A stretch of 4,848 nucleotides of DNA from IMG/VR virus record IMGVR_UViG_2617270960_000012. One strand, written 5' to 3'. The notes under the pieces were generated by a model that was not told where the DNA came from, ran no database searches, and was given only the letters and a program-made list of their open reading frames with translations. Both the position numbers and the translations under genes were made by a program. Each line of letters begins with the position of its first letter. Position 1 is the stretch's first letter. Below are positions 1 through 4,848 of the stretch, in pieces. The DNA comes from a virus. Taxonomy: Duplodnaviria; Heunggongvirae; Uroviricota; Caudoviricetes.

Positions 1-504
1 TTATTGATAGTGTTTTATGTTCAGATAATGCCCGATGATTTTGTCATGCAGCTCCACCGATTTTGAGAACGACAGCGACTTCCGTCCCAGCCGTGCCAGG
101 TGCTGCCTCAGATTCAGGTTATGCCGCTCAATTCGCTGCGTATATCGCTTGCTGATTACGTGCAGCTTTCCCTTCAGGCGGGATTCATACAGCGGCCAGC
201 CATCCGTCATCCATATCACCACGTCAAAGGGTGACAGCAGGCTCATAAGACGCCCCAGCGTCGCCATAGTGCGTTCACCGAATACGTGCGCAACAACCGT
301 CTTCCGGAGCCTGTCATACGCGTAAAACAGCCAGCGCTGGCGCGATTTAGCCCCGACATAGCCCCACTGTTCGTCCATTTCCGCGCAGACGATGACGTCA
401 CTGCCCGGCTGTATGCGCGAGGTTACCGACTGCGGCCTGAGTTTTTTAAGTGACGTAAAATCATGTTGAGGCCAACGCCCATAATGCGGGCTGTTGCCCG
501 GCAT
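1..504 (-). CDS. insB: IS1 transposase InsB frame; normally expressed as an InsAB' fusion by -1 ribosomal frameshift
   Basis: The 167-aa ORF from the track matches IS1 InsB along its length (…[18 protein letters not shown]…[39 protein letters not shown]…). The stop codon is at the window edge (1-3 reverse complement). Confidence 0.9.
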
Positions 505-696
505 CCAACGCCATTCATGGCCATATCAATGATTTTCTGGTGCGTACCGGGTTGAGAAGCGGTGTAAGAACTGCAGTTGCCATGTTTTACGGCAGTGAGA
601 GCAGAGATAGCGCTGATGTCCGGCGATGCTTTTGCCGTTACGCACCACCCCGTCAGTAGCTGAACAGGAGGGACAGCTGATAGAAACAGAAGCCAC
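423..696 (-). pseudogene. insA: IS1 insA with an internal frameshift; the N-terminal zinc-finger part and the C-terminal HTH part are in different frames
   Basis: Translated from GTG at 696 (minus), the frame reads [43 protein letters not shown], then shifts and stops at 526-528. The InsA C-terminus ([33 protein letters not shown]…LKNSGRSR) appears only in another frame, fused to unrelated upstream sequence in the 423..725 track ORF. Compared with canonical IS1 as I recall it, this is a 2-bp deletion between window positions 568 and 569. The IS1 length in the window (751 + ~15) is also 2 bp short of 768. Confidence 0.6.
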
Positions 697-751
697 TGGA
701 GCACCTCAAAAACACCATCATACACTAAATCAGTAAGTTGGCAGCATCACC

Positions 752-967
752 CGCCTCTGCAAACGCTGCGACCCAATAAGCGAAATGCTTCGCTCATATA
801 AACCAGATGAACACACTAAGGACGCTATCGACTGGCTGGAAGATGATGACTGTGACTATCAGGAAAAAGCCGCTGAATGGTTCTGGGATGCAATAACCAA
901 AAGAGTTAAGGCTGAATATGCCTTCGCAATATTCAAACGCAGACACATTTTTGGAGAAGCAGCATGA
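752..967 (+). pseudogene. 3' remnant of a phage early gene truncated by the IS1 insertion; product unknown, possibly the partner of recT
   Basis: The frame of the 785..967 track ORF stays open with no stop back to the IS1 boundary at 752. There is no Shine-Dalgarno before the ATG at 785. Its TGA stop overlaps the recT ATG (ATGA at 964-967). Confidence 0.35.
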
Positions 968-1866
968 GCAATATCGTTGAATTCGTTAAACAGCAAGAGC
1001 AGTTATTCTGCGGAGCATTGACTGAACAGACGGTGACATGGGCTAAGGAAAGCCAGTTTGCAATTCAGTATTTCCAGAAAAATGATTACCTGGCTAAAAC
1101 GGCACTGGCAAATCCAACCAGCGCACAGAACGCCATCATCAATGTTGCGGCGATCGGCATCACCTTAAACCCGGCCAGCAAACTTGCTTATCTAGTTCCG
1201 CGCGACGGCATGGTTTGCCTTGATATCAGCTATATGGGATTACTTCACCTTGCACAGTCGACAGGATCAATTAAGTGGGGGCAATGCAAACTGGTGTACT
1301 CAAACGACACCTATGAATCAAACGGCCTTGATTCAGCACCAACCCACAAATACAACGCATTTGGTGAGCGAGGCTCTATTGTTGGTGGTTATTGCACGGT
1401 TAAAACAGCAGATGGTGACTACCTGACTGAAGAAATGAGTCTGGCAGAAATTAAAGCTGTGGAAGCAACGAGCAAGGCAAAGAATGGACCGTGGAAAACA
1501 TTCTGGGAAGAGATGGCGCGTAAAACAATAGTTAAACGCGCCAGCAAATACTGGCCTAAAGCCCAGCGACTGGATAATGCCATTCACCTGCTTAACGAAG
1601 ATGAAGGTATGCATCAGGAACCAGTTATGCCGCACAAATCAGAGGAAGATATACGCGAAGATGAACGGAAACGCCAGCAGGAAATAATGGATAAAGCACA
1701 ACTTCTTTGTGATGAAATGGCTCAAGCAGAAAACATGGATGATTTGAAGCGATATTTTGCAGAAGCATATCGCCTGACATCTGGAATGAAATTGCAGCAG
1801 AACGTACAAGCCATTTACGCAGAATGCAAAGCGAAACTGGAGGTTGCCAGTGAGCAAACTGTATGA
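964..1866 (+). CDS. recT: RecT-family single-strand annealing recombinase
   Basis: 300-aa ORF with GGAGA 6 nt upstream of ATG 964. The motif NGPWKTFWEEMARKTIVKRASKYWP matches the conserved core of E. coli RecT (NGPW..HWEEMAKKTAIRRLFKYLP). It carries a long charged C-terminal tail. Confidence 0.88.
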   Translation: MSNIVEFVKQQEQLFCGALTEQTVTWAKESQFAIQYFQKNDYLAKTALANPTSAQNAIINVAAIGITLNPASKLAYLVPRDGMVCLDISYMGLLHLAQSTGSIKWGQCKLVYSNDTYESNGLDSAPTHKYNAFGERGSIVGGYCTVKTADGDYLTEEMSLAEIKAVEATSKAKNGPWKTFWEEMARKTIVKRASKYWPKAQRLDNAIHLLNEDEGMHQEPVMPHKSEEDIREDERKRQQEIMDKAQLLCDEMAQAENMDDLKRYFAEAYRLTSGMKLQQNVQAIYAECKAKLEVASEQTV

Positions 1867-2332
1867 AATTGCCAATGAATACGCAAAATTGATGGATTCA
1901 GATTTAGAACCAGAGATGATTGCTGACACAATAGAAGGCATGGAAGGAGAATTTACCGATAAAATAGAGCAACTTCTTTCCGTCATTAAAAATGAATCTG
2001 GTTATGCCGAACGCCTCAAGGAAGAGGCAAAGTCACTGAATGAGCGAGCCACAGTAATTCAAAATAAGATTGACAGCATTATGGCGTATATAGCGTCATC
2101 GCTTGAAATGGTTGGCAAGAAAAAGATTCGAGCAGGTATTCACCAGGTAACAATCCGCAAACCGTCAGAAACTGTAGAAATCATCGACTCAAGCGCCCTT
2201 CCTCCTGAATACGTTGAGTTTGAAACGACAATTAAAGCCGACAAACTGGCAATCAAACACCAACTAAAAGCAGGAATAAATATCCCCGGCGCTCAACTCA
2301 AAGTTGGGAAACCTTCACTTCTTATCAAATAA
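1850..2332 (+). CDS. Siphovirus Gp157-family protein, commonly found next to phage recombinases
   Basis: The N-terminus (SKLYEIANEYAKLMDSDLEPEMIADTIEGMEGEFTDKIEQLLSVIKNE…) and the …VTIRKPSETVEIIDSSALPPEYVEFETTIKADKLAIKHQLKAG… region fit the Gp157 family pattern. Start is placed at GTG 1850 (GGAGG at 1839-1843, 6-nt spacer) rather than the track's TTG 1844. It overlaps the recT stop by 17 nt. Confidence 0.72.
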   Translation: MSKLYEIANEYAKLMDSDLEPEMIADTIEGMEGEFTDKIEQLLSVIKNESGYAERLKEEAKSLNERATVIQNKIDSIMAYIASSLEMVGKKKIRAGIHQVTIRKPSETVEIIDSSALPPEYVEFETTIKADKLAIKHQLKAGINIPGAQLKVGKPSLLIK

Positions 2333-2343
2333 CGGTATCGACT

Positions 2344-2658
2344 ATGAAAAAGACTCCATGGGAGAAATGGGAAGTCGATTTCTTGCGCGAAGTAGCGGCG
2401 ACAATGCCAGTTGAAGTTATCGCTGAAAAACTGGAAAGGACTGAAAAAGCAGTAATAGCAAAAGCAACAAGGATTGGCGCTGACATTGTTAGCCGACTTC
2501 GTGGAAGACGCTGGACAAGAGCCGAAGTATCACTTTTCGGTAAGTTCTCCGCAGAAGAAATAGCAATTGCAACCTGCCGCTCAATTTATTCAGTGAGAGC
2601 TATGCGATACAAGCTAAAAAAACTCGATGAAGAGAGAACAGGCATACGAATAAATTAA
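2344..2658 (+). CDS. Small protein with two tandem helix-turn-helix-like repeats (sigma-70 region 4 / Myb-like pattern); putative DNA-binding regulator
   Basis: 104-aa ORF with an internal duplication: [12 protein letters not shown]…[24 protein letters not shown] and [39 protein letters not shown]. No obvious Shine-Dalgarno before ATG 2344. Confidence 0.55.
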
Positions 2659-2843: not shown

Positions 2844-3093
2844 TAATTCAGCACGACTACAGCTTGGTTTTTCACCGCTATCAAAAACTATCATGCTGGC
2901 AAAAATGCGCGATGTTGAAGGTGGACGTATGCGCGTTGGCAATGATCCAGGTCGTGATGTTACCAATGAGGCTGCTCAATTGGTGTGGCGACTGGTCATG
3001 GCTGAAGGTGGTGAGATCGCGTGGGAGCTGGATGATGGTTCTCGCATGGTGTTGAAGGCAGAAAAGCAGGAGGCAACCAGTGAGCAAGATTGA
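2839..3093 (+). CDS. Hypothetical small protein (84 aa)
   Basis: GTG 2839 follows AGGAGG (2827-2832, 6-nt spacer). Same frame as the track ORF 2818..3093. The gene body is flanked by two copies of an exact 17-bp repeat. It overlaps the next gene's start by 14 nt. Confidence 0.55.
3068..3084 (+). repeat. Copy 2 of the exact 17-bp direct repeat aggaggcaaccagtgag
   Basis: See copy 1. Spacing between copies is 241 bp. Each copy contains the ribosome-binding site and GTG start of the gene that follows it. Confidence 0.85.
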
Positions 3094-3793
3094 TTATCAG
3101 GCACTGCGTGCTAAGGCAGAAAAAGCAACGTGTGGTGTATGGTCGCTCGAATATGGAGAGAGCCGATTTGATGGTGATGATGCGCTAATTCATCGTGAAG
3201 TTGCTGGATATATTCCCATTTGCAGAATTGAAGGAGCGCATCCAGAAAGCGGTTTCGATGAAGATTTCCAAATGGAACAGCAGGCCAATGCTGAATTCAT
3301 CGCAGCAGCCAGTCCAGCTACCGTGCTGGCACTACTGGATGAACGGGAAAGAAACCAGCAATACATCAAACGCCGCGACCAGGAGAACGAGGATATTGCG
3401 CTTACGGTTGGGAGGCTGCGCGTTGAGCTGGAAGCAGCAAAAAAGCGCATAGCAGAACTGAAAGCCGAACCTGTAAGCCAAACTTACAAGTTGAACCAGC
3501 TATCGGGCAATTCTCCGGTAACTCCGGATGGTTGGATAAGCTGTAGTGAGCGGATGCCTGTAATTGGCGAGCTAAATTGGAGAACTAGTTTTCCTTTACT
3601 GGTTACGTGTGAGATCGGCGTTATACCTGCTTATTACGGCTTTGTGAGAGTTAATGGGAATAAGCATTATGGTTTTATGGAGAGTCTTAAATATGGAGAT
3701 GATAGCGGCAACCATCCTCAAACTAATGAATATGACCTGATTAGCAATGTAACCCACTGGAGCCGCTGCCAGAACCGCCGAGCAGGATGGTGA
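3080..3793 (+). CDS. Ea22-like prophage protein with a C-terminal DUF551-like domain
   Basis: 237-aa ORF starting at GTG 3080 after AGGAGG. The N-terminus [16 protein letters not shown] resembles Ead/Ea22-like proteins of enterobacterial prophages. A central coiled-coil-like stretch (RLRVELEAAKKRIAELKA) is followed by a C-terminus (GWISCSERMPV…NVTHW…) resembling DUF551. Confidence 0.65.
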   Translation: MSKIDYQALRAKAEKATCGVWSLEYGESRFDGDDALIHREVAGYIPICRIEGAHPESGFDEDFQMEQQANAEFIAAASPATVLALLDERERNQQYIKRRDQENEDIALTVGRLRVELEAAKKRIAELKAEPVSQTYKLNQLSGNSPVTPDGWISCSERMPVIGELNWRTSFPLLVTCEIGVIPAYYGFVRVNGNKHYGFMESLKYGDDSGNHPQTNEYDLISNVTHWSRCQNRRAGW

Positions 3794-4647: not shown

Positions 4648-4848
4648 ATGCAACACGAACTACAACCTGATTCACTGGTTGATTTGAAATTCATCATGGC
4701 TGATACTGGCTTCGGTAAGACCTTCATCTATGACCGGATTAAGTCCGGCGACCTGCCTAAAGCCAAAGTTATCCACGGACGAGCAAGATGGTTATATCGT
4801 GACCATTGTGAATTCAAAAATAAGCTCTTAAGCCGCGCCAATGGGTAA
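4648..4848 (+). CDS. AlpA/Xis-family small helix-turn-helix protein; excisionase or transcriptional regulator
   Basis: 66-aa ORF with GGAGA 9 nt upstream. The core …FIMADTGFGKTFIYDRIKSGDLPKAKVIHGRARWLYRDHCEF… fits the AlpA/excisionase pattern (…TG.S.STIYR.I..G.FP.P..LG.R...W…). The stop codon is the last 3 bases of the window. Confidence 0.78.
   Translation: MQHELQPDSLVDLKFIMADTGFGKTFIYDRIKSGDLPKAKVIHGRARWLYRDHCEFKNKLLSRANG

Follow-up and report, generated by a model that had tools for sequence, protein, structure and literature searches.

The C-terminal domain type of phage RecT annealing proteins tracks the gene directly downstream: a RecT-Gp157 module in a prophage remnant of Escherichia coli

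Which partners a phage annealing protein accepts is a constraint on recombineering and a factor in the mosaicism of phage genomes, and a structural explanation of this specificity has so far been available only for lambda Beta and Exo. The C-terminal domain (CTD) of Beta is a three-helix bundle of ~67 residues, located behind a disordered linker, which binds lambda Exo as well as the C-terminal peptide of SSB, the protein that binds single-stranded DNA (PMC6393309). Beta-like CTDs are common to several families of single-strand annealing proteins (SSAPs) (PMC8093625), and the C-terminus of the RecT protein of Listeria phage A118 (LiRecT) was proposed by its authors to be a small helical domain that binds a partner or SSB (PMC9772228). 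Moreover, a 2025 survey of lambdoid Rec modules described the module of phage HK140 as SAP type 4 plus a MuGam anti-RecBCD protein, nuclease- and SSB-less, and suggested a "shuffling of partner interaction domains" that was not analysed (PMC12315714); the mapping of CTDs to partners had previously been left unanalysed in the literature. In this study, we followed up the recT gene and the adjoining Gp157-family gene (gp157) of the IMG/VR virus record IMGVR_UViG_2617270960_000012 (Caudoviricetes), a stretch of 4,848 nucleotides that is termed the window throughout and that is identical, over its whole length, to a part of the chromosome of E. coli 1297KP.

The RecT protein of the window is a two-domain SSAP, with an annealing activity that is predicted from sequence and model. 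A preliminary description of this DNA, made from its letters alone, had placed a recT gene, coupled to a Gp157-family gene, at 964-2332, and these gene calls and coordinates were upheld, recT being an ORF of 300 aa at 964-1866. The module is composed of the following features:

964..1605, + strand: annealing core of recT (aa 1-214), supported by PF03837, by the Foldseek match to 7UB2 and by AlphaFold2 (AF2) pLDDT >90
1606..1641, + strand: flexible linker of recT (aa 215-226), pLDDT 68-72, no secondary structure predicted; the border at which the CTD type changes among related RecTs
1642..1866, + strand: CTD of recT (aa 227-300 plus stop), member of the "window-type" CTD family and predicted to form a three-helix bundle
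1839..1843, + strand: Shine-Dalgarno sequence GGAGG of gp157, within the recT coding sequence, 6 nt upstream of GTG 1850
1850..2332, + strand: Gp157-family gene, 160 aa (PF05565 E 4.6e-37; phrog_253 E 3.7e-54)

Compared with lambda Beta/Exo (PDB 6M9K, SynExo), the module is predicted to share the succession of annealing core, flexible linker and three-helix CTD of ~70 aa, and the gene directly downstream appears translationally coupled, as in lambda; in addition, close relatives of this RecT, in phages phi80 and TL-2011c and in locus L104, combine a CTD of the true Beta type with a homologue of lambda Exo. In contrast, the window CTD belongs to another sequence family, and the downstream gene encodes a Gp157/Mu-Gam-like protein and not a nuclease. 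The closest described relatives of the operon are those of mEpX1, HK140, Kapi1 and Gally, which share the same gene set with ~92% nucleotide identity, the CTD being 96-99% and Gp157 ~96% identical to HK140/mEpX1; the copy of the window differs by a divergent patch in the core, and is located in an IS1-truncated remnant of 8 kb instead of a complete phage.

Across the loci compared, the CTD type tracks the gene directly downstream, which is Gp157 in every case for the window type and a lambda Exo homologue in every case for the lambda-Beta type. Related loci were obtained from IMG/VR, their RecT tails were typed by hidden Markov models (HMMs) or by de novo clustering, and the downstream gene was identified (a scan with P0134 yielded 3 loci only). 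The tails of 143 representatives of the subfamily were distributed in 53 BLAST clusters on a well-conserved core, and one of these clusters was a true Beta CTD (hhalign 96.8%, E 3e-10; 99.5%, E 4e-23 with more sequences). Among 145 non-identical modules, the window-type CTD was accompanied by Gp157 in 126, and the Beta-type CTD by a lambda Exo homologue in 16. The three apparent exceptions were a locus with an HNH endonuclease gene inserted ahead of Gp157 (L084), a start-site artefact (L090), and a locus with Exo downstream and a CTD that was left unclassified by the HMMs used (L113). Furthermore, among 263 non-identical modules, the window-type CTD was followed by Gp157 in 171 of 171 (three of them after an HNH insertion), and all 63 RecTs with an Exo/YqaJ-type nuclease downstream carried CTDs of other clusters, with not a single one of the window type. 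CTD type and downstream gene also agreed in eight out of eight named phages, with a Beta-type CTD and Exo in TL-2011c, phi80, Vibrio phage 242E40-1, Yersinia phage vB_YenM_22 and Erwinia phage Midgardsormr38, and a window-type CTD and Gp157 in HK639, Aeromonas phage phiA005 and mEpX1.

At window-type loci, the open reading frames (ORFs) on either side of recT included neither a lambda Exo nor a RecE homologue; the window itself codes for no nuclease, and none is annotated in the intact relatives mEpX1 and Gally, the module lacking the adjacent exonuclease gene by which a SynExo is recognised. When identities to the window were correlated inside the window-type class, the value was higher for the pair of CTD and Gp157 (rho 0.91) than for that of core and Gp157 (0.58). 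A divergent environmental pair (L202) presented a divergent Gp157 and a tail that shares only "SMDELK" with "NMDDLK" of the window, a similarity that is too small for this tail to be counted as a relative.

As a separate observation, a tail cluster of 22 members (cl4, environmental loci L175-L257) precedes heterogeneous genes, including one that encodes a 564-aa helicase-like protein. The genes downstream of these RecTs are neither Exo nor Gp157, and further CTD-partner pairings probably exist.

The core identity to the window RecT was 72-100% in window-type and 60-87% in Beta-type proteins, and because these ranges overlap, the two types are not separate core lineages. In fact, locus L104 has an 87% identical core, yet it carries a Beta-type CTD and Exo; its nucleotide similarity to the window is 66-79% through the core, and drops to background by ~1550-1610, just past the KYWP motif. 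When the window was compared with mEpX1, a divergent patch (67-80%) was confined to ~1190-1610, ending at ~1610-1670, with 96-99% identity in the CTD, gp157 and both flanks. This patch looks like a gene-conversion replacement within the core domain. The exchange points, as read from these alignments, are inside recT at the junction of core and CTD, an intragenic position by which the CTD stays with the downstream gene and not with its own core.

A tblastn search with the CTD alone retrieved the "essential recombination function" protein of Pantoea phage PdC23 (gp43), which has an ERF-family core instead of a RecT core (PF04404 E 6e-44, aa 5-147), and which over its last ~46 residues matches helices 1-3 of the window CTD with 59% identity (E 2e-15). 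The same phage encodes a Gp157 that is 62% identical to that of the window and, in contrast to the window, is located downstream past an HNH homing-endonuclease gene. Consequently, the same adaptor goes with Gp157 on two annealase families, RecT and Erf, in parallel with the occurrence of Beta-like CTDs on several SSAP families (PMC8093625). With regard to the intervening gene, an HNH homing-endonuclease gene was observed exactly between the annealase gene and gp157 in PdC23 (L174, 2515-4090), in L084 (4896-5363), in L287-type loci and in phage Louie, and homing seems to recur at this junction.

The RecT of the window passes the family threshold of PF03837 (115.8 bits, cutoff 24; E 2.5e-33, aa 31-214), and phrog_148 covers aa 3-299, tail included (E 9e-92). 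An AF2 model built on a 145-sequence alignment (mean pLDDT 93.9) matched the core fold of LiRecT (7UB2; Foldseek E 3.8e-7, probability 1.0), with weak RAD52 matches next; the sequence identity to the A118 protein is 20%, and ~47 C-terminal residues of the latter are unmodelled in the structure. According to the model of the window protein, the last core helix (201-214) is followed by a 12-residue linker (215-226, pLDDT ~70) and by three helices of the CTD (227-253, 258-271 and 277-299, pLDDT 94-98). Because these helices are confident, the prediction for the tail is a linker with a compact helical domain behind it, and not a disordered or low-complexity charged tail. The conserved positions L43, K44, F47, A50, T54, G56, Q64, Y67 and K71 of the CTD (numbering of alignment A3) cluster in helices 2 and 3. 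Moreover, the CTD is the fastest-evolving piece of the module, with a mean pairwise identity of 64%, compared with 74% for Gp157 and 81% for the core. Pfam recognised no domain in 145 tails of the subfamily, the RecT model ending at the core; a PDB sequence search with the CTD profile returned nothing meaningful, and a homology search with the tail alone yielded just 29 pieces of these same RecTs, without any protein of another architecture.

The preliminary description had considered the tail unusually long, and charged, with ~110 residues past KYWP compared with ~45 in E. coli RecT. KYWP corresponds to aa 195-198 (nt 1546-1557) and is followed by 102 residues, and the RecT of the Rac prophage (K-12, 269 aa) aligns with 40 residues past KYLP, so that the difference in length is real, with both figures slightly lower than had been given. 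Rac RecT belongs to the same Pfam family, with 30% core identity, but is preceded by recE and is devoid of a window-type CTD. Within the subfamily, on the other hand, such length is usual. A search of 1.84 billion cluster representatives retrieved 11,758 relatives at E <=0.001, of which the best 150 were aligned to RecT; in the 145 of these 150 best 50%-identity cluster representatives with an alignable K-x-W-P, the tail had a median of 111 aa (interquartile range 97-128), and was of at least 90 aa in 87% and at least 102 aa in 67%. The median was 102 aa across the 263 related modules. In the 120 nearest clusters at 90% identity, from Salmonella, Klebsiella, Enterobacter, Citrobacter, Cronobacter and further genera, every protein has 296-301 aa. 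A long C-terminal extension is therefore the rule in this RecT subfamily, and its members differ in the CTD sequence family that is attached. The charge content is typical as well: the whole 102-aa tail contains 22% D+E and 14% K+R (net charge -8), and from 20 residues past the motif the values are 22% and 15%, respectively, against subfamily medians of 19% and 13%. The idea of a special tail was to be given up if most homologues had the same tail and no interaction with Gp157 existed; as regards the former, most aligned RecT homologues do have a long tail, which is normal for this subfamily.

With respect to the downstream gene, Gp157 matches PF05565 over its full length (128 bits, cutoff 28.6, profile positions 1-162), as do 59 out of 59 aligned Gp157 homologues with this family, and nearly all homologues across Enterobacterales have 160 aa. 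The spacing of GGAGG, the agreement with PGAP and the homologues favoured GTG 1850 over TTG 1844 as the start, and gp157 overlaps recT by 17 nt; the preliminary description had thus correctly stated that the next gene starts inside the recT 3' end and belongs to the Gp157 family. Because GTG 1850 has its GGAGG inside recT and a 17-nt overlap, the layout is that of translational coupling, and gp157 would be coupled to recT in the classic arrangement.

The same description called the function of Gp157 unknown, which is slightly outdated, since PHROGs labels the family "Mu Gam-like end protection" and the 2025 survey likewise names a Mu-Gam-like DNA-end protection. Gp157 is close in length to Mu Gam (160 vs 174 aa), and its AF2 model (mean pLDDT 78.6) presents a 67-residue helix (21-87) and a C-terminal beta domain (92-159), a layout that is compatible with the architecture of Gam, in which a long N-terminal helix precedes a C-terminal beta domain. 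The Mu Gam family PF07352 was matched by the window protein below threshold (16.6 bits, cutoff 28.3, E 0.0078), though in register and near profile-wide. By contrast, just 4 of the 59 Gp157 homologues matched PF07352 at E <0.1, the hhalign probability between the Gp157 alignment and Mu Gam was 1.4%, structural searches with the Gp157 model returned neither Ku nor Gam, and a PDB sequence search returned nothing meaningful. The link between Gp157 and Mu Gam is, by our own tests, weak. In Firmicutes as well as Proteobacteria, members of the Gp157 family adjoin genes of the Erf, Sak4 and RecT types.

In a search of BFVD, the Gp157 model also gave weak matches to PD-(D/E)XK/RecB-like exonucleases of 300-400 aa (Tsukamurella phage TIN4, Arthrobacter phage KellEzio), with a probability of 0.98 at rank 9, of 0.44 at ranks 21 and 36, and low TM-scores. 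From these predicted structures, other phages might have nucleases to which a Gp157-like module is fused.

Taken together, these results make an exchangeable domain for partner specificity the likeliest reading of the tail, with Gp157 as its probable partner. We therefore favour, with moderate confidence, a picture in which the CTD would be a partner-docking module and Gp157 its partner; a direct contact between the two specifically is proposed with somewhat less confidence. In such a mechanism, RecT would be docked on Gp157 through the CTD, much as Beta is docked on Exo through its own, and the CTD might also bind the C-terminal tip of the host SSB; Gp157 would be a dimeric, Mu Gam-like binder of DNA ends that shields double-strand ends from RecBCD and brings RecT to the protected ends. 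Resection would be supplied by host nucleases, since the intact phages mEpX1, HK140 and Gally encode no exonuclease here. The suggestion of the preliminary description that the tail mediates a partner interaction, perhaps with Gp157, thus gains comparative support from the CTD fold, the co-segregation, the breakpoints and the Erf fusion, short of proof.

Several points weigh against this picture. The window-type CTD showed no detectable sequence homology to the Beta CTD (hhalign probability 0.2%), and a Foldseek search with full-length RecT, which is dominated by the core, did not list 6M9K (Beta CTD). Within the window-type class, the all-pairs identity correlation was 0.84 for CTD-Gp157, compared with 0.86 for core-CTD and 0.76, and does not discriminate between the pairs; moreover, plain linkage could yield the co-segregation of the CTD with gp157, the two being neighbours on the DNA. 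Finally, phage HK639 (locus L169, 2198-3885) carries a GamL-type RecBCD inhibitor upstream of recT in addition to Gp157 downstream; Gp157 is therefore not simply a substitute of Gam or "the" anti-RecBCD function, and it fills the exo slot even alongside another RecBCD inhibitor.

A broader version of the docking picture is advanced more tentatively, and we consider it possible but rather short of probable. The window-type CTD and Gp157 would constitute a specific physical pair, and two-component phage recombinases would comprise a second class, with a Ku/Mu-Gam-like end binder, and not an exonuclease, docked to the annealing protein via a dedicated three-helix adaptor; the cassette would be portable across RecT and Erf cores, and the CTDs of SSAPs would represent a general partner code.

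As the main alternative, the CTD could dock on a host factor, the likeliest being the C-terminal tip of SSB, with gp157 co-inherited by adjacency and Gp157 acting as an independent end-protection or anti-RecBCD protein. This would be in line with the binding of SSB by the Beta CTD besides Exo (PMC6393309), with the reliance of RecT function on the host SSB tail (PMC13490951), and with a covariation inside the window-type class that is not specific to CTD and Gp157; in addition, Aeromonas phage phiA005 and TL-2011c have their own ssb gene within the module. However, the tip of host SSB is conserved in Vibrio and Aeromonas as well as in Enterobacterales, whereas a single host range comprises sharply different CTD families, perfectly sorted according to the downstream gene; the breakpoints are located within recT at the domain junction and not at the gene boundary; and the CTD has moved to an Erf core along with Gp157, even across an inserted HNH gene. 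We regard this alternative as unlikely in its exclusive form, docking on SSB and docking on Gp157 not being mutually exclusive.

That Gp157 is unrelated to recombination, and only shares the early-left operon as a phage-resistance or superinfection-exclusion protein, as in an old Pfam text, seems improbable to us. Some records do use "resistance protein" for members of the family, and no biochemical data on Gp157 were found in the literature, but Gp157 directly adjoins SSAP genes of different families (RecT, Erf, Sak4) in Proteobacteria and Firmicutes, its gene appears translationally coupled to recT and occupies exactly the exo slot, and its length and predicted layout are like those of Mu Gam. 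Lastly, a net charge of -8 and 22% D+E could recall, as does the preliminary description, an intrinsically disordered acidic tail, DNA mimic or autoinhibitory, such as those of SSB or T7 gp2.5, but this is very improbable given three long helices with pLDDT 94-98 behind a linker of only 12 residues, a helical periodicity of the hydrophobic and aromatic positions that are conserved (L, F, A, Y), and a composition that is typical of the subfamily.

As for its genomic setting, the module lies in a prophage piece of 8 kb in 1297KP, from argW-intS to torI-dsdC, in the KplE1/CPS-53 attachment region. The features flanking recT and gp157 are:

1..751, - strand: IS1 element (insB 1-504, insA 526-696), identified from ORFs and annotated as an IS1A-family transposase
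785..967, + strand: remaining 3' part of phrog_3486, a small conserved early gene (E 9.8e-31, profile positions 43-102 only)
2344..2658, + strand: 104-aa Mu gp9-like gene (phrog_323, "D5-like regulator"), with matches to phrog_11492 and phrog_323

Phage sequence restarts at ~752, right after IS1, and this IS1/phage junction was present in one of 5426 complete E. coli genomes; the module is common, with a match to the stretch in 1027 of the 5426 and most of the stretch in 267. The element cuts into the phrog_3486 gene and truncates the early-left operon upstream of recT, with N, cIII and the promoter gone, and because IS1 separates the remnant from the promoter region, the module of the window may be silent. 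All genes from 785 on are on the + strand and are equivalent to the lambdoid early-left (pL) operon, in the order small gene, recT, gp157, 104-aa Mu gp9-like gene, DUF2737, DUF7446, Ead/Ea22-like gene and TorI-type excisionase. The phrog_3486 remnant is a partial pseudogene according to PGAP, its stop overlapping the recT ATG by 4 nt, and an intact version of 103 aa is present in mEpX1.

The product of the 104-aa gene has two internal helix-turn-helix-like repeats (W-x3-E motif) and a weak similarity to gp9 of phage Mu. There, gp9 directly adjoins gam, an adjacency that mirrors the neighbourhood of Gp157 in the window and adds a little to the likeness with Mu Gam; the 104-aa gene is a frequent, non-obligatory third member of the module (61 of 80 close loci). 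The label "Anti-RecBCD protein 1 (Abc1)", given to this gene in Gally, was rejected, since tblastn matched 16 phage records and none of P22 type.

Further downstream, an ORF at 3080-3793 combines an Ead/Ea22-like N-terminal part and a DUF551-like C-terminal part, of which PGAP marks only a partial ead/Ea22 pseudogene; it may be a decayed or fused gene. The excisionase gene, annotated as torI (response-regulator inhibitor TorI), extends from 4648 to 4848 and reaches the end of the window, and the cognate intS is on the far side of the remnant, beside an EpsG-family gene.

In brief, the biology of the window itself is ordinary, that of a common module in a decayed prophage, and the HK140/mEpX1 module type had already been catalogued. 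What is new, at the level of sequence comparison, is that annealases partnered with Gp157 are marked by a CTD family of their own, and that the CTD type predicts the partner type. One RecT core lineage with interchangeable C-terminal adaptors, from which the neighbour gene, Exo or Gp157, can be predicted, provides a testable guide to cognate pairs, and the poorly characterised Gp157 family gains a concrete candidate binding partner. A nuclease-free RecT-Gp157 pair might permit double-stranded DNA recombineering by end protection and not by resection and, if the adaptor rule is true, the cognate partner of a recombinase would be readable from the C-terminal domain of its SSAP.

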